From Candidatus Harpocratesius repetitus (GTDB lineage Archaea; Asgardarchaeota; Lokiarchaeia; Sigyniarchaeales; Promethearchaeaceae): a stretch of DNA of 32,000 nt. Positions 949-16,631 of the stretch are shown in pieces (position 1 is the first letter of the stretch; each line of letters begins with the position of its first letter). Below the pieces are notes generated by a model, which was given only the letters and a program-made list of their open reading frames with translations, had not been told where the DNA came from and ran no database searches. The position numbers were made by a program, and so were the translations under genes. The stretch is taken from NCBI GenBank assembly GCA_021498095.1, contig JAIZWK010000001.1, positions 3,210,001 through 3,242,000 of the forward strand, read 5' to 3'.

Positions 949-1284
949 ATGGAAAAGAAATTGAAATCTTTGATAGATTCATATTATTCTATAAATCCAA
1001 AAATTGTTACTCCTATTCGCCTTTTAATTCTAAATTTACTTAAATTTCATAAGGATGGGTTACAATTTAGAGAATTTAAAGAGGCGATCCAAATATCTGA
1101 TGGAAATCTTTATTCAAATCTTGAAATATTGAAGGGTTTATCACTAATTAATTCTGAAAAGGTAGATATTGATAATAAATCAATTGAAATATATTCATTG
1201 ACTTCAGAAGGTCTTATTGAATTAAAAAAAACCAATGAATGGTTAAATAACTTACAAGATTTTGGTGATCAAATTGAAAGCTGA
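949..1284 (+). CDS. Winged-helix (ArsR/HTH_34-like) transcriptional regulator
   Basis: PIRLLILNLL...LQFREFKEAIQISDGNLYSNLEIL...YSLTSEG is a typical archaeal wHTH pattern. Confidence 0.85.
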   Translation: MEKKLKSLIDSYYSINPKIVTPIRLLILNLLKFHKDGLQFREFKEAIQISDGNLYSNLEILKGLSLINSEKVDIDNKSIEIYSLTSEGLIELKKTNEWLNNLQDFGDQIES

Positions 1285-1828
1285 TTATATTAAAATTCTA
1301 AAAGCGATGAAACAATTAGAAATTCCGATAGAAAGACATGAATTAAGAAAAACAAATAGAATCTTTATCCAAAAATTCACATATATTTTAAAGAAACTTG
1401 GATTTGAGTTATCCAGTTATAATGATTACAATTTTTATTTAAATGGAGTATATAGCCCTCATTTAACTCAAGATTATTATCAAATTCCAATTACTTCAGT
1501 TAATGAATCATCAATTTATCTCAGTCAGAGAGAATTAGACATTATAGAAAAATATAGAAACAACATTTTGGAACATCCCTACTTTAAAACTCACAAAATA
1601 GAATTTCATGAAGCCTTAACCACAATTCAATATTTATATGAGAAATATCACGAGTTATCTGAAAAAGAACTATTAATTACTGCTAAAAATTTAAAGAATC
1701 ATTTATCACGGAAAATCTTAGTAATATCTTTGAATGTAATTAAGAAATTGAAATTTCAACAAGATATGGTCACTCCTGATCTGAAGGAAGAATTTGCCCT
1801 TTGGGATTCATTAAACGATGGTGATTGA
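1262..1828 (+). CDS. Panacea (SocA/DUF4065)/YwgA-like putative antitoxin
   Basis: RIFIQKFTYILKKLG...YNFYLNGVYSPHL resembles the LQKxxY...WxxGPYS signature. It overlaps the wHTH gene, and its stop (1826-1828) abuts the MazF ATG. Confidence 0.6.
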   Translation: MVIKLKADYIKILKAMKQLEIPIERHELRKTNRIFIQKFTYILKKLGFELSSYNDYNFYLNGVYSPHLTQDYYQIPITSVNESSIYLSQRELDIIEKYRNNILEHPYFKTHKIEFHEALTTIQYLYEKYHELSEKELLITAKNLKNHLSRKILVISLNVIKKLKFQQDMVTPDLKEEFALWDSLNDGD

Positions 1829-2179
1829 ATGGTAAATTTATTTAAAAAAGAGATATGGAAGATAAATCTTCAGATGGGTTCTCAATCTATAATTGGTCAT
1901 GAGCAAGGTGCTACAAGACCTTGTGTAATAATGAAAGTATTACCTGCAGTTCAATTAGCAACAGTAATTCCATTAACTCGTACTTTAAGTATATTAAGAT
2001 TTCCATATACCTTAGAAATTCAACCATCAACACAAAATGGATTGTCATCCACCAGTATTGCTATGATTTTTCAAATAAGAAGTGTAAATTTTCACCGTTT
2101 TCGTTCAAAGTATGGTATTCTTGAAAATGATGAATTTACGGATATTCAGAACTTAATTTCAGATTTCATTCTAAATTGA
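1829..2179 (+). CDS. mazF: MazF/PemK-family endoribonuclease toxin
   Basis: GHEQGATRPCVIM, VIPLT and QIRSV motifs; 116 aa. Confidence 0.9.
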   Translation: MVNLFKKEIWKINLQMGSQSIIGHEQGATRPCVIMKVLPAVQLATVIPLTRTLSILRFPYTLEIQPSTQNGLSSTSIAMIFQIRSVNFHRFRSKYGILENDEFTDIQNLISDFILN

Positions 2180-2248: not shown

Positions 2249-3658
2249 ATGGAATCACCTAAAATAAAAGTAATCTTTCTAGGTAGACCCGGAGTTGGGA
2301 AAACTACATTACGTAAAATCTTCTTTGACCAGCAAAATCCACTTAAATTACTAAAGCAAACCTTTGAACCGACTCTTGGTGCAGAAACACAAGTGTATAA
2401 TTTTGGAATGGAAATTGCAGTTCATGATTTGGCTGGACAAGAATTAAAAAGATGGTTAACAACTGATGATTATATTTTAGAAGATGTTGATGTTGTCATT
2501 TTAGTGCTGGCTGCAACAGACGAATGGGAAGAAAATATGGAACTATTTAATAAGGTAAAAGAGATTCTTCAATTTAAACATATTTCAACCACGATTGTTG
2601 TCTTTTTCCATAAAATCGATCTTTTAACAGGCCACCAATTAACTGAACTTCAAAAAAATTTGGTTGAACTTCGCAAAACTGCTAAGTTTAATATAGATTT
2701 TTTTACCACAAGTATTCAGCAAAAATATATTTATGATACATTCTATGCTTTTATTCGAGCATTAAAAGCTTCTCTATATAAAATAAGGAATTTGGATTAT
2801 TACGACTTCTTCATAAAAGTTGAATTGATACGATATTTCATTACTCATGATCAAGCAGATTACAAAGAATTAGAGGAGCGACTGCGTATCAAACCGTTGG
2901 AAATCTTGGCTTTTATCAATATATTATATAAAGATGGTCTTTTAAAACAAAATCGAAAATTAAAGACAATAACTGTTACAGAAAAAGGATTGGAAATACT
3001 GGAACAAATTGATAAAGGATTTCTTCCAAATGTGAAAGAAGTTATATTAGCAGAAAGGAATTATATAAAAGGGGTAATATTAGCTGAAAAAAGTGGAATA
3101 CCTTTTTTTATATATGAATATGCTCCAGGGTATTTTAAATCTTTAATTACAGATGAACGAAGTGCATCTGAGCCTGGTATTATTTCTATGTTTTTTGCTC
3201 AAATTCTGCAATTTGGTCAAACTATGGATTACAAAGGATTAAACTCCTTTTATTTAAGTGGACATAATCTACGAATCGTTTCGCGATCCTATCGAAACTT
3301 AATGGGAATTTTCTTAATAGACAGAATTGAAATGGATCAAGGTATTTGGAAGTATTTTCATGATTTTATGCAGAATTTAAATAAAGTTTATGGAGAAAAA
3401 TTGCAAAAATTCATCGATCAACAACAATTAATTACAGATTCAGAACTTGAAAATCAATTAAAACAAGACATTCAATATTTAGATATGGTATTAAAATCCC
3501 ATCATCAAAATAAAACTCATTTTTCAAAGAAAAAATTACTCGAAATGTATATAAACTTAATGCAGGAAGAAAAAGATAGTGTAACATTATCAGAATTACA
3601 ATCTATTCTGTTCCAATATTTAATAATGGAAAGCCCAGAATCATTACGTGAAATTTGA
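2249..3658 (+). CDS. Rag/Gtr-like small GTPase fused to a winged helix and a roadblock/longin-like domain
   Basis: G1 GRPGVGKTT, G2 PTLG, G3 DLAGQ, G4 HKID, G5 TSI. Central wHTH-like segment ending TVTEKGLEIL. C-terminal IKGVILAEKSGIP alpha/beta domain. Confidence 0.8.
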   Translation: MESPKIKVIFLGRPGVGKTTLRKIFFDQQNPLKLLKQTFEPTLGAETQVYNFGMEIAVHDLAGQELKRWLTTDDYILEDVDVVILVLAATDEWEENMELFNKVKEILQFKHISTTIVVFFHKIDLLTGHQLTELQKNLVELRKTAKFNIDFFTTSIQQKYIYDTFYAFIRALKASLYKIRNLDYYDFFIKVELIRYFITHDQADYKELEERLRIKPLEILAFINILYKDGLLKQNRKLKTITVTEKGLEILEQIDKGFLPNVKEVILAERNYIKGVILAEKSGIPFFIYEYAPGYFKSLITDERSASEPGIISMFFAQILQFGQTMDYKGLNSFYLSGHNLRIVSRSYRNLMGIFLIDRIEMDQGIWKYFHDFMQNLNKVYGEKLQKFIDQQQLITDSELENQLKQDIQYLDMVLKSHHQNKTHFSKKKLLEMYINLMQEEKDSVTLSELQSILFQYLIMESPESLREI

Positions 3659-3677: not shown

Positions 3678-5942
3678 TTATATTTCATAGTTTTCATGCA
3701 AATACCCTTCTAAATGCTGAATTTTGTTTGTAATAATGTAGTATTCACGCAACAAATCTTGATACGACTTAACAAATTCTGGATTGCTGATTACACCACG
3801 ATCATATTGATATTCCAACTTTTGAAGAGTATTTTGAAAAGCATACTGATCACTTCGTAAACGTTCCAATTCTGCTCGAATATTCATTTCTTCAGATGAA
3901 AAAGGATCACTATTCATTGATTGATCAAAACTCTGGAACGAAGATGCTTGGAATCCAGATGTACCAAATGGAGCAGATGAATTTTTGCGAAAAGGTGAAT
4001 TTTGAGAAAATTGTGATCGTTGAGAAAATGGACCTGGTGAAGTAAATGGAGGACTTTTGAAATTACTCGAATTATCAGAATTATTCAAATTGCTATAATT
4101 GTTGGAATTCTTGGAATTGCTAAAATTGTTGAAATTGCTGAAATTGTTGAAATTGTTGAAATTGTGAGAATTCTTAGAATGATTGAAATTGCCGAAATTA
4201 GCGGATTTACTAAATTTACCAAATTTGTCTGAAGAACCAAAATATGTATTTCCATAATTATTAGCTCTTGGATCTGGTTGTGATTGACCTGCTCTAAATC
4301 CTTTTTGAGAGGAAGGATCAGAATAAAATGATGTGTTATTTTGATTAAATTGAGAATAGTTAGAGCCATTTGAATAATAATTGTTTCGCGATGAATAAGA
4401 GTTAGTTTGTCCAGAATATCCATTCTGCGAAAAAGTATTAGATGCTCTTCTTGGATTAGCTCTATTCTCGCGGTAGAAACCTCTTCTTGGTCCCCATTCT
4501 CTATTCATTTGAGATTGAGTAAAACCTGGATTGTGAAAATTACTGTTATTGTTGTTATTATTTTGAAATTTTGATGTATAAAGATTATAGAAGTTGTTAT
4601 TCCCATATTGATTATTGTAATGATTGGCGCGAAACATTGGAGAATTGAAGAAATCTGTGTTTGCTTGACTGTCATATCGAACTTGACCTCGATTTTGATA
4701 AATTCCATGATAACCCACTAAATTATAAATTGCATTTTCCAATTCTTCACTAAATAGTTTAGTTGTTAGTCGATATTTTATTAGTTGTTTAAAGTGAGTT
4801 TCATTAATTATGTTTTTTACTTCAAATTCTTGAGCGCGTTCAATCCAATCAACCATGATTTCCCTTTTATTTTTTGAAATAGAGAAATCATACATAGAAT
4901 TAAGGAATTGAAGAGAAACTTTCTTTTTCAACCTACCTTTTACTTCTGCAGCCTGTAAATCACCCAATTGGACAGAAAATAATAAAACTGTGCGTTTTTT
5001 GAAAACCCCTTGTTCGTGATAAAAATAGATCCGCTTGCTGGTTATCAAAATAGTACCATTTTTATTTGAATATCCTTGTTTGTCATCCACACCTGAAGAT
5101 AGTTTGCAGTTTAAGCCATAGACAATTTTTTCATCATTATCTAAATGCAGTTTGGGAAGAAATTTATTAAATAAGGACTGCATCCTTTCCATGAATCCAA
5201 TTTTGTCTTCTAAAGGTTCTAATCGAGTGAATAAGGGTTCAACTTCCGTTTTTGCCAATTTTTCAACTTTAAGGCGTTCTCTTTCAAAATGATTTAATAT
5301 TTCTGAAATATATGTAAGATTTGATGGATGGGTTATTTGAATCTCGTTAATATAATGAATATTCCGTTGAATTTCTTGAAAAAAACGGTTTGCTTGATCA
5401 TATACTCTATTTTTTCCATTATCAAATAGCTTAAATAACAGAAGAGAATCAGATTCCAAAGTAGGATAATGATAACATTGGGGATATTCTTGGCGAAGTT
5501 CAAAGATTTTATTCCGGAAAGTCTGAAGTTTATCTAAAATAGATTCAAATGGAGTTAAAAATTGGCGGGTATTATTTATTATCTGCTTATAGGTATCAGT
5601 AAGAGCTCTTTGCTTATCTACTATCCGAACAACTTGAGTACTTTCACAACTTGGACATGTAGGCAAAACTTTATTAGCCATTCTCACTTCATGCCCTCCA
5701 CAATCATCACAATAAGGACGATCGTATTTATCGAATGAAATATTTTTACTCCCACAGGATAAACAAATATACTGCTCTTCTGTCCGCAAATCAACACAAT
5801 CTTCACAAAAAACCTCATGACAGCTTTCGCAAATATATTGAAGATTAGGGTTTTCATTGCAAATTGGACATACTTCATTCGGATAAATGGGCATATGATT
5901 TGACAACCTATTCTCTAGCAGATCTATAATAAAAACACTCAT
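3678..5942 (-). CDS. Multidomain ESCRT-I-like protein: Zn fingers, coiled coil, PH/GRAM-like domain, Asn-rich low-complexity region, C-terminal Vps23/TSG101 steadiness box
   Basis: Six CxxC pairs at the N-terminus; GTILITSKRIYF PH/GRAM-like strand pattern; about 270 aa N/S/F/Q/G/Y-rich region; C-terminal AFQNTLQKLEYQYDRGVISNPEFVKSYQDLLREYY. Confidence 0.7.
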   Translation of the reverse strand: MSVFIIDLLENRLSNHMPIYPNEVCPICNENPNLQYICESCHEVFCEDCVDLRTEEQYICLSCGSKNISFDKYDRPYCDDCGGHEVRMANKVLPTCPSCESTQVVRIVDKQRALTDTYKQIINNTRQFLTPFESILDKLQTFRNKIFELRQEYPQCYHYPTLESDSLLLFKLFDNGKNRVYDQANRFFQEIQRNIHYINEIQITHPSNLTYISEILNHFERERLKVEKLAKTEVEPLFTRLEPLEDKIGFMERMQSLFNKFLPKLHLDNDEKIVYGLNCKLSSGVDDKQGYSNKNGTILITSKRIYFYHEQGVFKKRTVLLFSVQLGDLQAAEVKGRLKKKVSLQFLNSMYDFSISKNKREIMVDWIERAQEFEVKNIINETHFKQLIKYRLTTKLFSEELENAIYNLVGYHGIYQNRGQVRYDSQANTDFFNSPMFRANHYNNQYGNNNFYNLYTSKFQNNNNNNSNFHNPGFTQSQMNREWGPRRGFYRENRANPRRASNTFSQNGYSGQTNSYSSRNNYYSNGSNYSQFNQNNTSFYSDPSSQKGFRAGQSQPDPRANNYGNTYFGSSDKFGKFSKSANFGNFNHSKNSHNFNNFNNFSNFNNFSNSKNSNNYSNLNNSDNSSNFKSPPFTSPGPFSQRSQFSQNSPFRKNSSAPFGTSGFQASSFQSFDQSMNSDPFSSEEMNIRAELERLRSDQYAFQNTLQKLEYQYDRGVISNPEFVKSYQDLLREYYIITNKIQHLEGYLHENYEI
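4060..4203 (-). repeat. Degenerate 9-bp coding tandem repeat, 16 units
   Basis: Plus-strand units such as aaattgttg, aaattgctg and gaattcttg stay in phase and encode 16 x-N-(F/S/Y/L)-type tripeptides (ANF GNF NHS KNS HNF NNF NNF SNF ...). Confidence 0.9.
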
Positions 5943-6172: not shown

Positions 6173-6463
6173 TTATCGGATAATTTTCACAAAAGTTCCA
6201 AAAGCTTGCCCAGGTAGACCACCATTCTTAAAATGAGCGCATACTGCACCATTATTTCCATGAACTCGGGTAATTTTAGCGGTTTTAAGCTTTCCTGTTG
6301 GAGTCTCCCATGCAATGGTGTGTCCAAGTAAAATTCGAGCAGCTTCTTTTCGAGTTTCGATTCCAGGAAATTGTAAGACTGTAAAACGGGGATGTATAAT
6401 TTTTTTTGATTTCCGATAATTTACAATGAAACCTTTTTTTCCAATAACAATATCTTCAGACAT
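6173..6463 (-). CDS. rpl35ae: 50S ribosomal protein L35Ae
   Basis: IVNYRKSK...KITRVHGNNGAVCAHFKNGGLPGQAFG matches the eL33/L35Ae signature. Confidence 0.95.
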   Translation of the reverse strand: MSEDIVIGKKGFIVNYRKSKKIIHPRFTVLQFPGIETRKEAARILLGHTIAWETPTGKLKTAKITRVHGNNGAVCAHFKNGGLPGQAFGTFVKIIR

Positions 6464-6657: not shown

Positions 6658-7509
6658 CTAAGTATAAAGATCGCGTACAGGTGCGACCCGCTGGTGGTGG
6701 ACATCATCAGTTTTCTTTGCAATCTCCATTAAATTCTGTTTTATTTGATTTGCCTGCTCATAAAGTTGCTGTAAAGTCAATGGAATACTGTAGATTTCTG
6801 AAATCTTTTCTAATATAGCTGCGGCTCCCTCTGGATTTGGAAGTTGAGGATTTGCCGGTGTTAAAAAAACAGCTCCATTAAGTTGATTATTTAAACATTC
6901 ATTTAAAATGGCGGCTTCTGCACCCATTATTAAACCTCTTGGAGGGATTTTAATTCCGTGGTTAAGAATTTTTTTCATTATTTCTTTTTCTGCAGCGGCA
7001 TATACTTCAACAGGACCCGTTCGAATAATATTATTATCAGCCATTCCTTGAAGACAAATTACATCACGGATATCTTGAAGAAGTGCCCATTCCATGAGAG
7101 TGCGCGCCAAGTCTCGGTATGAACCTTGATTGAATGGAACTTCACAAATTGAAATCACAACATTATGCTCTTGACTCCAATAAAGTCTAAATGGATGCTT
7201 AAGAACACCCTCATAAAAAAGCGTAATTGGGGGTAAATCCTCACTGAGAATATAACCAATTTGAGTCATTTTTAATTGGTTTATCATTTCATTTGTTACA
7301 ATTGTGCCAATCATACCGACTCCTGTAAAACCAAGGATAAATAATGGAGGAGTATCAACTTTTTTTAGAAAATCGCAATATTCGCTGTATATTACTACAC
7401 GAGATGCTTTTCCTTCTAAATGATCGGCGCATCGAATATCTACTTCCTTTTCTTCCATTTTTTCATTTTTATTTTCATTTTCAATTTTATTTTCTGGTTG
7501 GTTTGACAT
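6658..7509 (-). CDS. PAC2-family proteasome assembly chaperone
   Basis: ILGFTGVGMIGTIVT, LPPITLFYEG...PFRLY and PNPEGAAAIL motifs of the PAC2 family. Confidence 0.85.
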   Translation of the reverse strand: MSNQPENKIENENKNEKMEEKEVDIRCADHLEGKASRVVIYSEYCDFLKKVDTPPLFILGFTGVGMIGTIVTNEMINQLKMTQIGYILSEDLPPITLFYEGVLKHPFRLYWSQEHNVVISICEVPFNQGSYRDLARTLMEWALLQDIRDVICLQGMADNNIIRTGPVEVYAAAEKEIMKKILNHGIKIPPRGLIMGAEAAILNECLNNQLNGAVFLTPANPQLPNPEGAAAILEKISEIYSIPLTLQQLYEQANQIKQNLMEIAKKTDDVHHQRVAPVRDLYT

Positions 7510-7586: not shown

Positions 7587-9422
7587 TTAAGAAAAGAAAC
7601 TTAAGTAAATTTCTTTCAATTTTTTTGATACAATGCTCCATCTAAAGTATTTTTCAACCCGAGATTCTGCATTTTCTTTAATCTTATCTGCGTAAAATGA
7701 GTCATTCTGAATCTGCTTTCGGAGCTGAGCATTGATAATCTTACTTAAATATGCAATTTTTTCAGTTTCAGTAAATAGAGGATCGGAATGTGCTCTTTCT
7801 GTTATATGCATAATACTTAATAGAGAAACCAACGCATATGATAATTCTTTGGGTTGATCAATTGGGACTAATAATCCAGTTCCACGAACAGGATCTTTAT
7901 CTAAAGACACAATCGATTCTTTTAATCCTCCTGCATTTGTAGCAACAACAGGAATTCTTGAAGCCATTGCTTCTAAAGCCACAATCCCAAAAGGTTCCCA
8001 TCTACTAGGACAGCAGTAGACATCAGCGGCTAAATGTGATAAAAAATAAATAGTTCCTGCAATTCCAAATATGAAACGAATATTTTCTGGATATTGATAA
8101 GCTACTTTCATATAGGAAGATAGATCATCTAAAGTAAAAGCTGATGGAACCATTAGAAACAGAAATTTTGCATTAGGAAAGTGTTTTAATACAAGAGGTA
8201 TAGCAGAGAGTAAAGTTTCGATTCCCTTTTGTCTCGATACTCTTCCAGTGATTAAAACTAAGGGTCCATCCTCAAAAAAATTGTCGACCCTGCCATCTGG
8301 ATGATAAGGGGGTTTTGAAAATTGTTTTTTTATGAAATTTAATACTTCTCTATCGCTGATTTTTGGTTCAGATGCTGGTAATCCACCTATTTTTTTTGTC
8401 AAAAGAAATTTCCGAAAATCCCATGATCTCAAAGTATTAATATCAACTTGTGGTAATTCTTTATGAAATTTGTCGAAAACATCAGTTACAAGAGAATTAT
8501 AAGACCAATCACATCCATTCCAAGTAAAATCACATTTTTCTTTTATTAAAGCACCACCACAGTGGGGAATTATATCAGAATGTAAAAAACTTTCACTTAC
8601 AGCAATAACTTTATCTGCCAAAAGGCACCCAATTGTTTCTAAAGTCGGGAACTCGGAAGAACCATTTTGAGCAAGGTTATAAAATTCACGCATAGTTAAC
8701 ATTACTCGAGAATCTCCAATTTGAGCAGATATTTTTTCATTATTTACCCCAGACTCCCAAAAAAATTGAAGATTCTTTCGAGGCCAAGTTAATAAATGCA
8801 TAGTAATCACAGTATGAACATCACGCTGAGAAAGAATCAATTGTTGACGGCAGTTAAATAGAGCAGCAACTGGATGATGGTCATGAATATGAATTATATC
8901 TGGAAGATCTTTAGGTCTTTCATCAATGCAAAATCTCATAAACTCCTTCATTGCCAAAGCAAATAGACCTAATTTTGCATTTAATGTTTTTGCGCTGTAA
9001 ACTTCACGGCAATTTAAAATGTAATCAGATAATGGATTTGTTCCAACTAAAAGAATTACTGGAACACCTTTAAATTCTCCTTTCCAAAATTCTACTTTAA
9101 ACAAATTTTCATCTGAACTGTTATTCGATTTAGCATCATTTTGTGAAATAATATTAAAATAATTCCGATTTATTGAACCAGAAGCAATATAAGTTTCACC
9201 ATTAGAGCGAAGAATAGGATGAAGGGATAAACTATTTTTCATTATTTCATGACGCCCATGAGAAGGAAGAAATACAGTTAGGTTAATGTCTGGAGATTTA
9301 GCAAGATTAATGCATTGATTCGCAGATACTTCTCCTAAACCACCAACTTTGGCAATTCCTGAAAATTCAAAGGCAAAAACCCATATTTTCTTTGCATCAG
9401 AGCGATTTATTTGAACACTCAT
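7587..9422 (-). CDS. glgA: Glycogen/starch synthase (GT-B, GT5-like)
   Basis: KVGGLGEV ADP/UDP-glucose motif, IIHIHDHH, GRVSRQKG, PSRWEPFGIVALEAM. Confidence 0.85.
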   Translation of the reverse strand: MSVQINRSDAKKIWVFAFEFSGIAKVGGLGEVSANQCINLAKSPDINLTVFLPSHGRHEIMKNSLSLHPILRSNGETYIASGSINRNYFNIISQNDAKSNNSSDENLFKVEFWKGEFKGVPVILLVGTNPLSDYILNCREVYSAKTLNAKLGLFALAMKEFMRFCIDERPKDLPDIIHIHDHHPVAALFNCRQQLILSQRDVHTVITMHLLTWPRKNLQFFWESGVNNEKISAQIGDSRVMLTMREFYNLAQNGSSEFPTLETIGCLLADKVIAVSESFLHSDIIPHCGGALIKEKCDFTWNGCDWSYNSLVTDVFDKFHKELPQVDINTLRSWDFRKFLLTKKIGGLPASEPKISDREVLNFIKKQFSKPPYHPDGRVDNFFEDGPLVLITGRVSRQKGIETLLSAIPLVLKHFPNAKFLFLMVPSAFTLDDLSSYMKVAYQYPENIRFIFGIAGTIYFLSHLAADVYCCPSRWEPFGIVALEAMASRIPVVATNAGGLKESIVSLDKDPVRGTGLLVPIDQPKELSYALVSLLSIMHITERAHSDPLFTETEKIAYLSKIINAQLRKQIQNDSFYADKIKENAESRVEKYFRWSIVSKKLKEIYLSFFS

Positions 9423-9523: not shown

Positions 9524-11659
9524 CTAGGATTTTTTTAAATAATTTTCTGTTCTATACCTTCTATTGTATAGAGGAACTGAAAAAAATGATTTCACTTCTT
9601 GTTCTAAAAGTTGAAGGTTAAATGGAATCAACCGCATTTCTCGTTTTATCCAATCAGAAAGAAAATTCCTATAATGTCGAAATCGAAAATCCATTAAAAT
9701 AATTAATCCTTTATCATCCATTTTTCGAATTGGCCGACCACAAGCTTGATTTGATCGCTGCATAGCAGGAACAGTATAACCAAAATCTCTTCCTTGTCCA
9801 GGAAAAATTTTATTATAATAAGCGATTTTAGCGTTTCCACTTGGAGTAGGGCGTTGGAATGGAATACCCACAATGACAACAGTATTCATAAAATCCCCGG
9901 GGAAATCTTCTCCCTCACTATTACGACCTCCACAGACACCTAATAAGACACCTCCATCAAATTTCTCATGATGACTGCATTCTTTAAATTGTTCTAACAA
10001 GATATCATTATCAGAAGCTGTCATTTCTTTTTCTTCGCGAAAAGGTTTTTTTTTGCATTTCTTTACTATATCTGCAAACCCTTCACGCCATAGGCCTTCA
10101 ACCACTTCATAAGAAGCACAAAAAACCCCGACATTTTTTGGAGTATTTCTGATAATCGGAACTAAAGCTGATAGAATGTCTCTAAACATTGTGGGAGTGC
10201 GATCTTCGCCTCGAGTAGTTAAGTATTTGGTAATTAATACTTTTACATTTTCTTTTGGGAAAGGAGGGGACATTTTCACAATTTTCAAAGTTTTACCGCT
10301 TTCATGCAGACCAAGTAAATGAGTATAGGTATATGGATGGAGAGTCCCAGATAAAGATAGAGTAGCAAAACTTTCCTTAAAAATAGGATCTGTAATATAG
10401 CGGGGGGAAAGGCATTTCAGCTCTAATGCAATAGTTTTGCCTCTTTTAGAATACTTACTAGTAAAACATGAAAAATACGCAGGATCATCAATTGTCTGAA
10501 TTAATTTTGTAAAATAGGAGACGATTGGTGCAATATAATCACGAGGCGTTCTTCCTTGATCGATTTTTTCTTGATTAATTGCTTCCCCATATTCTCTTAA
10601 GTCATCCAGTAGATCTTTTAATTCTCTAAGAGATTTGAGATGATTTCCATTCAATATATTCTGAATAAATTTTGGAACATCAAATTTCGTCTCATCTTCA
10701 ATTCGATCTTTTAGCTTACTTAGAAGATCTCGACAAAATTTTACGAAATTAATGAGATTATAGGTCGCTCGAGTAAGTTCTAAATCTTTAATAGCTTGTC
10801 GCAATGTAAATGGAGTAATTCGATAAGAGTTTATCCCGTTTGCCATTTCTGGAAGATTATGACATTCATCCATTATAATTATACAATCAGACAATTCACA
10901 TCCAATTGTTTCTAAGAAATTCTCACGAATATTTGGTTCAAAAACCCATTGATAATTACAAACTATGATTTTCTCATTCTCCATTAGAAATTTACTTAAG
11001 AAATATGGACAAAGATCGTCTTGTTCTGCAAATTCAATTAATTCTTGAGCGTCCAGAGGAATAGAAGCGAGATTTTTCATTTCTTCTTGAAAATGGGCAG
11101 TTTTTCTCTTTTTAAGTAGATTATTGAAATAATGGCAGCGTTTATTCTTTCGCAATTGGGAACAAACCGACATACTTTCACTTGGAGGTAATTGCAGTCG
11201 CTGAATGGTTTTATGAGGACACATCTCATTTCTACCCCGTAAAGAAAGGGCGCCAATTGTTTGAGAAATACCAATACGGGCAAAATGTTGAGTAATACTT
11301 CTGGTTTCCTGAATAACGCGCGCATTTTGAGTAAAAGTGCGGGAACAGAATAATATTTTTCTCTTTTTATCTTTCATGGCGATAGGAAGAGCAGCGGAAA
11401 GAGCCATTATTGTTTTTCCGGTTCCGTTTGTGGCAATTAAAATAGAATTTTTGCCTAAAGCGATAGATTCTGATAATTGTCCAATTACACGCTCTTGATT
11501 AGGACGAAATTCCGGATATGGAAAGAAATCTCGAAAACCAAGAATGGGTTCTTCAGAGGGTCTAAAACTATTTTGATTTGCCCTCATCTTAACACTATCT
11601 TTTGTTATAATTCGATTTGTTTTGCTGTTAGGTTTTTGTTCTTCATTGTCGATTATCAA
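9524..11659 (-). CDS. xpd: XPD/Rad3-family Fe-S DNA helicase
   Basis: Q motif FRPNQ, Walker A NGTGKT, four Fe-S cysteines (MCP, VCS, RCH, LCPY), DECHN, SGTL, SEGEDFPG, QACGRPIR. The TTG start is preceded by AGGGGG. Confidence 0.93.
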   Translation of the reverse strand: MIIDNEEQKPNSKTNRIITKDSVKMRANQNSFRPSEEPILGFRDFFPYPEFRPNQERVIGQLSESIALGKNSILIATNGTGKTIMALSAALPIAMKDKKRKILFCSRTFTQNARVIQETRSITQHFARIGISQTIGALSLRGRNEMCPHKTIQRLQLPPSESMSVCSQLRKNKRCHYFNNLLKKRKTAHFQEEMKNLASIPLDAQELIEFAEQDDLCPYFLSKFLMENEKIIVCNYQWVFEPNIRENFLETIGCELSDCIIIMDECHNLPEMANGINSYRITPFTLRQAIKDLELTRATYNLINFVKFCRDLLSKLKDRIEDETKFDVPKFIQNILNGNHLKSLRELKDLLDDLREYGEAINQEKIDQGRTPRDYIAPIVSYFTKLIQTIDDPAYFSCFTSKYSKRGKTIALELKCLSPRYITDPIFKESFATLSLSGTLHPYTYTHLLGLHESGKTLKIVKMSPPFPKENVKVLITKYLTTRGEDRTPTMFRDILSALVPIIRNTPKNVGVFCASYEVVEGLWREGFADIVKKCKKKPFREEKEMTASDNDILLEQFKECSHHEKFDGGVLLGVCGGRNSEGEDFPGDFMNTVVIVGIPFQRPTPSGNAKIAYYNKIFPGQGRDFGYTVPAMQRSNQACGRPIRKMDDKGLIILMDFRFRHYRNFLSDWIKREMRLIPFNLQLLEQEVKSFFSVPLYNRRYRTENYLKKS

Positions 11660-15242: not shown

Positions 15243-16631
15243 ATGAAAAAAAAACTTGGACGACCCAATAGAGTATCTTGGAAGAGTAAACCATTTTGTA
15301 ATCAATGTAAAATAGAGTGGGAAGAGCCTTTCTTATGGTGTCCAGAATGCAATTCATTACTCGAAATTCCTCCAATTAATGCACAAAAAAACCAGAAAAT
15401 AGACTCATTATGGGCTTTTTCAGGGTTTTTCCCTAATTTTTCGCGATGCATCTCATTAAATGAAGGATTTACATCTATTATAGATATCAAGAATATTCCG
15501 GACTTGAAAAAACTCAAAATGAAATTGGAATTTCGTAATCCTACAGGTAGTTTTCGTGATCGAGCAGCTGCACTCCTTGTTTCTGATGCACTTTCGCGAA
15601 AATTTTCAGAAATTCTTACTGTTAGTACAGGTTCGTTTAGCATCAGTATTGCAGCATATACTGCTCGAGCTGGACTTAAATCGATCAATTTTATTCCAGA
15701 AAATATTGAATTGACCAAAATTGAACAAATGAAGATTTATGGTTCAGAAGTGCGATTTCAAGGTAAGAATTTAGGTGAAACTATGCAAGATGCCCAAGAA
15801 TATTTAAAAAAACACTACTCAAAAGATTTATATGTTCCACTACCCAATCAGAATATTTTAACAATTGAAGGTCAAAAATCAATTGGATTGGAAATTGCCC
15901 TTCAAAATCCAGATATTGAGAATGTAGTGGTTCCAAGGGGTTCCGGCACTCTTCTTTATTCATTATATAAAGGATTTATAGATGCTCGAGAATCAGGATG
16001 GATTGATCGAATTCCAAGGATCTTTGCTGTAGCTTTAAAAAAATCAGCAGATTCTCAGCTAGTTGAATCTTTGGATATCAATGACCCTATGTTGTTATCT
16101 GAGGTCAGTCGTATTTTACAGGAAACAGGAGGAAAAGAAATACCAATTTCTGGTCAAAAAATGGCAGAACAAGCCATTGAACTAGCAAAAAATGAAGGAA
16201 TATTTATAGAGCCTGCTTCTGCATCAGTAATTGCAGGAGTACGGAGTATGAAGGAGAATTTAGGGATTGAATTACCTCGTACCTTGACATTATTAACAGG
16301 TTCTGGAATAAATGCAATGAATTTATTTGCTTCACAAATGCGGGATGTAAAAAAAGTGTTGTGGGGAGTAACCGCTACTTCTACTAAAAAATTTGAAATA
16401 CTTAGGGTAATTGCTGAAAGAAAGGCTCAGCATGGATATGGAATTTGGGTTGTATTGGGAAAAAGGAATTCAATTCAATCGATCTACCAGCATATCACTC
16501 AACTCGAAAAAGAAAACTTAATTATTAATACTCAGCCAAACAAAAAAAGAGCAAATTTCGAACTTACCGATAAGGGTAAAGAAACTTTTCTAAGAATGAG
16601 AGAATTAATTGAAGTTCACGGTCAAAAATAG
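15243..16631 (+). CDS. Threonine-synthase-like (PLP fold type II) protein lacking the Schiff-base Lys, with N-terminal Zn ribbon and C-terminal winged helix
   Basis: NPTGSFRDR in place of NPTGSFKDR; VPRGSGT; GIFIEPASA; C-terminal HGYGIW...QSIYQHITQLEKENLI...FELTDKG. Confidence 0.85.
   Translation: MKKKLGRPNRVSWKSKPFCNQCKIEWEEPFLWCPECNSLLEIPPINAQKNQKIDSLWAFSGFFPNFSRCISLNEGFTSIIDIKNIPDLKKLKMKLEFRNPTGSFRDRAAALLVSDALSRKFSEILTVSTGSFSISIAAYTARAGLKSINFIPENIELTKIEQMKIYGSEVRFQGKNLGETMQDAQEYLKKHYSKDLYVPLPNQNILTIEGQKSIGLEIALQNPDIENVVVPRGSGTLLYSLYKGFIDARESGWIDRIPRIFAVALKKSADSQLVESLDINDPMLLSEVSRILQETGGKEIPISGQKMAEQAIELAKNEGIFIEPASASVIAGVRSMKENLGIELPRTLTLLTGSGINAMNLFASQMRDVKKVLWGVTATSTKKFEILRVIAERKAQHGYGIWVVLGKRNSIQSIYQHITQLEKENLIINTQPNKKRANFELTDKGKETFLRMRELIEVHGQK

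Follow-up and report, generated by a model that had tools for sequence, protein, structure and literature searches.

We examined a 32,000-nucleotide stretch of the Candidatus Harpocratesius repetitus genome (positions 3,210,001-3,242,000 of a single-contig genome of 4.36 Mb; we will call this stretch the window, and position numbers are those of the window unless stated otherwise), and in particular one gene on its minus strand, at 3678-5942. [quoted passage not shown] A first-pass annotation, made from the DNA letters alone, had proposed an adaptor linked to ESCRT-I that combines a steadiness box (SB), a PH-like domain and zinc modules. Three results agree with this proposal: a profile match to Vps23, homology to the N-terminal hairpin of Vps28, and a predicted complex with Vps28. 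Computation establishes how the domains are arranged, that the hairpin is homologous to Vps23 and Vps28, and that the family is conserved; we infer binding to membranes, to cargo and to Vps28.

The window is AT-rich (GC about 0.28-0.33), and the positions 3678-5942 coincide exactly with one open reading frame (ORF). The public runs list no RNA data set for this gene. Its true start codon is probably the ATG at 5894 (M17), which would give a protein of 738 aa, since almost every ortholog starts with MPIYP, found at residue 17 in this protein. The nearest named relative is a "PH domain-containing protein" from Candidatus Harpocratesius (86% identity), and orthologs are present in Lokiarchaeum ossiferum, in Promethearchaeum syntrophicum, and in many assemblies of Promethearchaeota. 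An AlphaFold2 (AF2) model of residues 17-412, built on the ortholog alignment (pLDDT 84.8, pTM 0.73), has three beta-hairpin zinc modules, long antiparallel helices, and a beta-sandwich with a C-terminal helix. This agrees with the order of domains that was first proposed (zinc modules, helical region, PH, disordered region, SB). The features of the gene, with the evidence for each, are:

3678..5942, minus strand: whole ORF, 754 aa (ORF list and translation)
5820..5870, minus strand: predicted zinc ribbon 1 (C25, C28, C38, C41; Cys invariant in 22 orthologs, beta hairpins in the AF2 model, zinc ribbons as the best local Foldseek matches)
5754..5807, minus strand: predicted zinc ribbon 2 (C46, C49, C60, C63; invariant Cys, AF2 model)
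5646..5711, minus strand: predicted zinc ribbon 3 (C78, C81, C96, C99; invariant Cys, sub-threshold matches to Pfam Zn_ribbon_8 and to the NCBIfam FmdB-type ribbon)
5166..5624, minus strand: antiparallel helical bundle ("coiled coil"), residues about 107-259 (long helices in AF2, pLDDT mostly >90)
4830..5144, minus strand: PH-like domain of the bPH_3/GRAM type, residues about 267-371 (Pfam bPH_3, AF2 sandwich, VIA search)
4716..4826, minus strand: helices after the PH domain, residues about 373-409 (AF2 pLDDT about 90, conserved columns)
3879..4706, minus strand: linker, disordered and with much N, S, F and Q, residues about 413-688 (composition; unalignable between orthologs)
3702..3878, minus strand: steadiness box, a helical hairpin of the Vps23-core type with a preceding helix, residues 689-747 (profile, Pfam, hhalign, predicted interface)

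The steadiness box and its predicted pairing with Vps28

The SB had been recognised from its likeness to the steadiness box of TSG101; the motif that was quoted corresponds to residues 701-735 (nt 3738-3842). The family profile bears out the SB, via Vps23. When we compared a profile of 23 ortholog C-termini with the sequences in the PDB, it matched the yeast Vps23 core (2p22_A, E = 3.5e-8; also 2f66_A and 2caz_A, with E up to 6.3e-7) over 59 ungapped residues, which is far above chance. TSG101 itself is a weak match (human 6vme_B, E = 0.17), and the next ranks below Vps23 are taken by designed coiled coils (E = 0.02 or weaker). Furthermore, the Pfam model Vps23_core (PF09454) matches 20 of the 23 orthologs (best E = 6.4e-5), and a class-level ortholog (G002, a 618-aa open frame) passes the cut-off of the model with 29.6 bits.

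The hairpin also resembles Vps28. An hhalign comparison of the SB alignment with 25 Lokiarchaeial Vps28 proteins gave 92% probability (E = 6e-7) across 59 columns of the Vps28 N-terminal hairpin. Judging from these alignments, the two hairpins are homologous, which fits a headpiece that is made of homologous hairpins.

A complex of the SB with the genome's own Vps28, which the first-pass annotation had put forward as a check, was predicted with confidence: the SB and Vps28 residues 18-125 reached an ipSAE of 0.78, and the best of 3 controls reached 0.10. Three runs agreed on 100% of contacts, with a partner pLDDT of at least 88. In the predicted interface, Vps28 residues 28-61 contact SB residues 710-739.

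If these predictions are correct, then the protein might work as follows. In the model, the SB hairpin packs on the homologous N-terminal hairpin of Vps28 to form an ESCRT-I-like headpiece. The PH domain would set the complex on the membrane, and the zinc ribbons would bind cargo or a partner, possibly ubiquitin. The flexible linker would let the membrane-bound N-terminal half of the protein reach the headpiece, which would hand over to ESCRT-II and ESCRT-III through Vps28's C-terminal domain.

Several points weigh against this reading. Although the protein resembles Vps23/TSG101 in its C-terminal SB hairpin and in the predicted packing of this hairpin on Vps28, it lacks the UEV domain (neither UEV nor UQ_con matches it) and, unlike Vps23/TSG101, begins with zinc ribbons. 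The PH domain and a 276-aa linker part the helical bundle from the SB, whereas the stalk and the headpiece of Vps23 are contiguous. Taken alone, this protein falls below the Vps23_core cut-off (12.4-16.6 vs. 26.8 bits; E = 0.17 for the full length and E = 0.008 for the C-terminus alone). In the PH domain, the best-conserved residues (about 332-351) are modelled by AF2 with pLDDT <50, although the remainder of the domain is confident. The gene does not lie in an ESCRT operon, and Vps28 is 1.9 Mb distant. As to the predicted complex, 58 of 80 solved complexes and 2 of 110 mismatched pairs attained the mark in the ipSAE calibration, but our run used our own alignments, so this calibration is only rough. 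The score may also reflect memory of solved Vps23-Vps28 headpieces (2f66, 2caz, 2p22, 6vme). Because such headpieces have already been solved, the prediction is a statement of likeness, compatible with binding but not proof of it. Finally, the support for an ESCRT-I role of the family is computational throughout.

The SB might also be real and yet have a main partner other than Vps28. It could form homo-oligomers or pair with other SB-type hairpins (a free-standing SB protein, or SB-bearing Vps22 or Vps25), in which case it would make the protein a scaffold at the membrane that either feeds ESCRT-II directly or acts apart from ESCRT-I. SB-like hairpins are indeed fused to the Asgard Vps22 and Vps25 families (Makarova et al., PMC10936438), and a free-standing Lokiarchaeal SB protein binds Vps22 in a yeast two-hybrid assay (Hatano et al. 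2022). Given the homology of the SB and Vps28 hairpins, hairpin pairing could be promiscuous, and close cousins of the true partner can also pass a complex test of this kind. Nevertheless, the interface predicted with Vps28 is a confident one that recurs between runs (0.78 vs. 0.10), and the SB profile matches Vps23 in the PDB, with no Vps37 or Vps28 chain among the matches. Also, neither PF09454 nor the family profile finds a second SB protein in this genome at E <0.01. We consider this alternative to be distinctly unlikely.

The SB family profile does have two weak matches in the genome (E about 0.05), in a 92-aa ORF and in a 1492-aa open frame. We considered the 92-aa ORF as a further SB protein and rejected it, as its sequence is not SB-like. 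A search of the genome for Mod_r/Vps37, as a third partner in the headpiece, gave noise only; the same model fires in 11 of 14 control genomes.

Zinc modules, PH domain and linker

The protein has twelve cysteines (C25 to C99, nt 5646-5870), arranged as three CxxC...CxxC sets, that do not vary among 22 orthologs; this is in keeping with the Cys clusters that had been noticed at about 5630-5870. The zinc module was modelled in isolation with a pLDDT of 82. A Foldseek search with this model returned nothing at E = 0.001 or better, and the sole matches at low rmsd were the zinc ribbons of the RNA polymerase subunits Rpb2 and Rpb12 (1.8-3.2 Å over 35-42 residues).

The first eight of these cysteines might instead form a cross-braced finger of the B-box/RING type. 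Combined with the coiled coil, this would make the protein a TRIM-like ubiquitin ligase or adaptor, and not a passive subunit of ESCRT-I. The genome has one E2 (G000:C1:220418-220846). Ribbons 1 and 2 jointly have sub-threshold B-box/RING matches: 22 of 22 orthologs match Pfam's zf-B_box (best E = 2.4e-5), and the module also matches RING models and ANCHR-like B-box models, but all of these matches are below the curated cut-offs, and Cys-rich profiles cross-match easily. When compared with the PDB, the profile of the module picks up the RING fingers of RNF4, RING1B and TRIM21 (E = 0.002-0.03); on the other side, double-zinc-ribbon models match the module as often as B-box/RING models do. The Cys spacing (C-x2-C-x9-C-x2-C-x4-C-x2-C-x10-C-x2-C) is compatible with a B-box of type 1, and UniRef names the L. 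ossiferum ortholog a B box-type domain protein. However, the AF2 model of the module consists of beta hairpins, and Makarova et al. (PMC10936438) name these modules Zn ribbons. Because the only local fold matches at low rmsd are zinc ribbons, and because the B-box/RING matches are sub-threshold, we keep the N-terminal modules as three predicted zinc ribbons and regard a TRIM-like protein as very improbable.

A VIA search with the helical bundle returned generic 3-helix bundles at Z = 8-10. These matches include the V-domains of ALIX and HD-PTP, which we left uninterpreted; Z scores of 8-10 are below the value of about 13 that is required for helical folds.

The next domain had been noticed as PH-like, at about 4825-5140. 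Indeed, Pfam's bPH_3 matches residues 267-368 (nt about 4839-5144) with 26.1 bits, above its cut-off of 23. Across the orthologs, bPH_3 matches 23 of 23 and GRAM 22 of 23. The GLUE domain of Vps36 (PF11605) matches 20 of 23 at sub-threshold scores, and in this protein it reaches 14.2 of the 24.1 bits required. VIA matched the PH/GRAM domains of Lam6, MTMR2, BBS5 and Exo84 (Z about 7), and the best match of a PH-domain profile to PDB sequences was only at E = 0.26. The most conserved stretch of the domain, residues 332-351 (window about 4890-4949, minus strand), has invariant G336, K340, L344, F346, N348, S349 and M350 and a conserved basic run, K335-G-R-L-K-K-K341.

A Foldseek search of the PDB with residues 17-412 also returned RhoGEFs with DH-PH domains (E = 6e-5), but with TM scores of 0.15-0.25 and an rmsd of about 20 Å. 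We dropped a GEF (guanine nucleotide exchange factor) reading because we take the match to reflect a pattern of helices followed by a PH domain, not homology to DH, and because the adjacent gene for a Rag/Gtr1-like GTPase is not syntenic in relatives.

Some bacterial and archaeal proteins with bPH_3/GRAM domains carry a C-terminal SHOCT domain, and the PH domain here is bPH_3 by the Pfam cut-off and GRAM-like. SHOCT has the motif G-[VI]-I-x3-E-F in common with the hairpin and often follows bPH domains. The least probable explanation that we considered is a bacterial-type PH protein outside the ESCRT system, with a generic oligomerisation helix, SHOCT-like or coiled-coil, as its C-terminal hairpin and with a similarity to Vps23 that is compositional. 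The first-pass annotation had named a match to generic SHOCT-like helices alone as grounds for refuting its proposal, and this is not what we found. SHOCT matches 3 of the 23 orthologs at sub-threshold scores (best E = 4e-4), and 19 of 23 match coiled-coil families such as APG6_N, but SHOCT (PF09851) does not match this protein up to E = 10, and a scan of the whole genome for matches at E = 1 or better did not pick out this gene; the ungapped match to Vps23 (59 residues, E = 3.5e-8) has about twice as many residues as the 28 positions of SHOCT, and the next matches in the PDB are designed coiled coils; some orthologs are above the curated Vps23_core cut-off; and among the genomes searched the family is limited to Asgard genomes that carry ESCRT genes. 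In contrast to the bPH_3/SHOCT proteins, then, the hairpin here is of the Vps23-core type.

Between the PH domain and the SB lies the linker, with 59 N, 49 S and 32 F among its 276 residues and just 3% aliphatic residues. Part of it (window 4079-4199, minus strand) is encoded by a 9-nt tandem repeat (13.4 copies with 72% matches, by TRF), which gives triplets of the NFN/NFS type. The linker is about 270 aa here, as compared to about 160-175 aa in most Lokiarchaeales, so that this clade has gained or kept a surplus of about 100 aa; it is shorter in the forms of about 500 aa from other classes. In most of the Lokiarchaeales orthologs, TPAGHxGYPHD is conserved within this otherwise unalignable region (A1 columns about 601-613; P0005-P0019, P0021, P0024), perhaps as a short linear motif for interactions. 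It is absent from this protein and from its three closest relatives.

The family in Asgard archaea and its relation to Vps36

Makarova et al. (2024, mBio, PMC10936438) described the family Znr_CC_PH_SB, also written Znr_PH_CC_SB (asCOG cog.011556), as "a likely ESCRT-I component". According to these authors, the family is not found in eukaryotes, is present in a number of Asgard lineages and is probably ancestral, and its PH domain is expected to be membrane associated by analogy with Vps36. In their table, the member from Lokiarchaeum GC14_75 comes right after rpl35Ae, and a Vps20-type ESCRT-III gene stands two genes further on. Lu et al. (2023, bioRxiv 10.1101/2023.07.25.550441) used cog.011556 as the "Steadiness/Vps23 box". 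Beyond these two studies, we did not meet the family name in the literature that we searched.

All four modules of the family are present in our protein: three zinc ribbons, a helical region, a PH domain, and a C-terminal SB. The domains are in the same order, the phylum is the same (and includes Lokiarchaeia), and the gene lies at the same site downstream of rpl35Ae, with an ESCRT-III gene nearby. We assign it to Znr_CC_PH_SB on the basis of this architecture and of the synteny that it shares with the GC14_75 member. There is no difference in kind; the copy here has a longer linker and lacks TPAGHxGYPHD. The architecture, which had been called unusual, is so relative to eukaryotes only: within the Asgard archaea, it belongs to a described and widespread family. 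Similarly, the functional reading is sound but not new, as Makarova et al. (2024, PMC10936438) drew the same inference, including the analogy to Vps36.

A profile of the N-terminal half (zinc modules, coiled coil and PH domain) matches 148 of 251 Asgard genomes, or 67 of the 89 of high quality. Among the genomes searched, some families nearly always match (51/55 and 57/59) and others never do (0/26 and 0/16). We also collected 15 distant homologs, mostly of about 490-540 aa, which cover this profile fully or largely; in 11 of the 15, an SB is detectable at the extreme C-terminus.

The first-pass annotation had likened membrane and cargo recognition by this protein to that of Vps36, and this holds in part. 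A PH-fold domain and zinc fingers are combined in one protein, as they are in Vps36, and GLUE matches weakly in most orthologs. However, GLUE is below threshold, and bPH_3/GRAM is the nearest type for the PH domain. The zinc modules come ahead of this domain, not within it, and their models are those of ribbons and not of NZF or FYVE fingers. Where Vps36 has winged helices, this protein has no match to EAP30 and has an ESCRT-I-type SB instead.

Which proteins might partner Vps28 in the Lokiarchaeales? In this complete genome, PF09454 matches this gene only, and a search for UEV (PF05743) found none: the single match (E = 0.26) is interrupted by stop codons. In two families of the same order (Lokiarchaeales; 59 genomes searched), all PF09454 matches lie in open frames of 663-729 aa, which is the size of these orthologs, and PF09454 found no Vps23 of about 260 aa in those genomes. 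Because PF09454 matches only these long frames in the Lokiarchaeales searched, and because PF05743 finds no UEV in this genome, we can imagine that Znr_CC_PH_SB is the principal Vps23-type partner of Vps28 in the Lokiarchaeales and not an accessory one; that PH domains and zinc ribbons, rather than the binding of ubiquitin by UEV, drive the recruitment of ESCRT-I; and that the prion-like linker, rich in N, S, F and Q, gives condensate-like clustering. This combination is speculative and, in our view, unlikely. If it were true, ESCRT-I would be recruited through the recognition of lipids or of partners, and a linker that was expanded in this lineage would lead to multivalent clustering at the membrane.

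The Asgard ESCRT-I is a key piece for reconstructing the origin of eukaryotic membrane trafficking. This family would have joined the headpiece hairpin of ESCRT-I to a PH domain, predicted to bind membranes, and to zinc fingers before eukaryotes arose. We do not describe a new kind of system, since both the family and its reading are in the literature. Our additions are modest: a control-tested prediction of the SB with its own Vps28, a tally over 251 Asgard genomes, and a conserved synteny with rpl35Ae and Snf7. The protein is a good target for biochemistry in the two cultured Lokiarchaeia.

Genomic neighbourhood

Four genes lie upstream of the gene in the window:

6173-6463: L35Ae
6658-7509: PAC2
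7587-9422: glycosyltransferase
9524-11659: XPD-type helicase

The block of XPD, glycosyltransferase, PAC2, L35Ae and the Znr_CC_PH_SB gene is also found in P. syntrophicum and L. ossiferum. In both of these genomes, a convergent Snf7 gene lies 2.4-3.6 kb downstream of the ortholog. Here the distance downstream to Snf7 is 7.7 kb, which takes that gene out of the window (genome coordinates G000:C1:3205307-3205963). The linkage is loose, but it is kept in three genera, and Snf7 is always convergent and downstream. Thus, the view that the gene is encoded outside an ESCRT operon is true here, but it needs to be qualified by these distances. A 42-aa zinc-ribbon ORF comes 4 nt after the Snf7-family ESCRT-III gene (together G000:C1:3205307-3206096; L009:9308-10097).

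The genes that are inserted here between the Znr_CC_PH_SB gene and Snf7 encode a Rag/Gtr1-like GTPase, a MazF toxin, antitoxin-like proteins, and an FG-GAP protein. The GTPase gene (window 2249-3658, plus strand) is convergent with ORF 3678-5942 at a gap of 19 nt, and it is the one that is non-syntenic in P. syntrophicum and L. ossiferum. Its product, of 469 aa, has an N-terminal small GTPase domain of the Gtr1/RagA type (Pfam E = 2.7e-15) and a C-terminal extension of about 290 aa. In the toxin-antitoxin-like insert (window 949-2179, plus strand; L009:13936-14265), a gene for an HTH_34 regulator and a 188-aa ORF are joined by genes for a MazF/PemK toxin (1829-2179) and for a DUF6290/NikA-like antitoxin. 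The corresponding site in P. syntrophicum, upstream of the ortholog there, carries a PIN-VapB pair.

The other ESCRT genes are dispersed, with two EAP30 genes at other sites in the genome. The gene for Vps28, the only one in the genome, is at G000:C1:1316606-1317295. It sits directly upstream of rpl34e, cytidylate kinase (cmk) and rpl14e, whose orientation it shares (G000:C1:1315081-1317295; L008:8082-10296), with no other ESCRT gene near. Both ESCRT-I candidates of this genome therefore adjoin genes for ribosomal proteins.

Further along the window, at 15243-16631 (plus strand), is a gene for a 462-aa protein with a PLP-dependent (PALP) domain and a C-terminal PadR-like winged helix. A similar PALP-HTH protein is encoded in the same neighbourhood in L. 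ossiferum.

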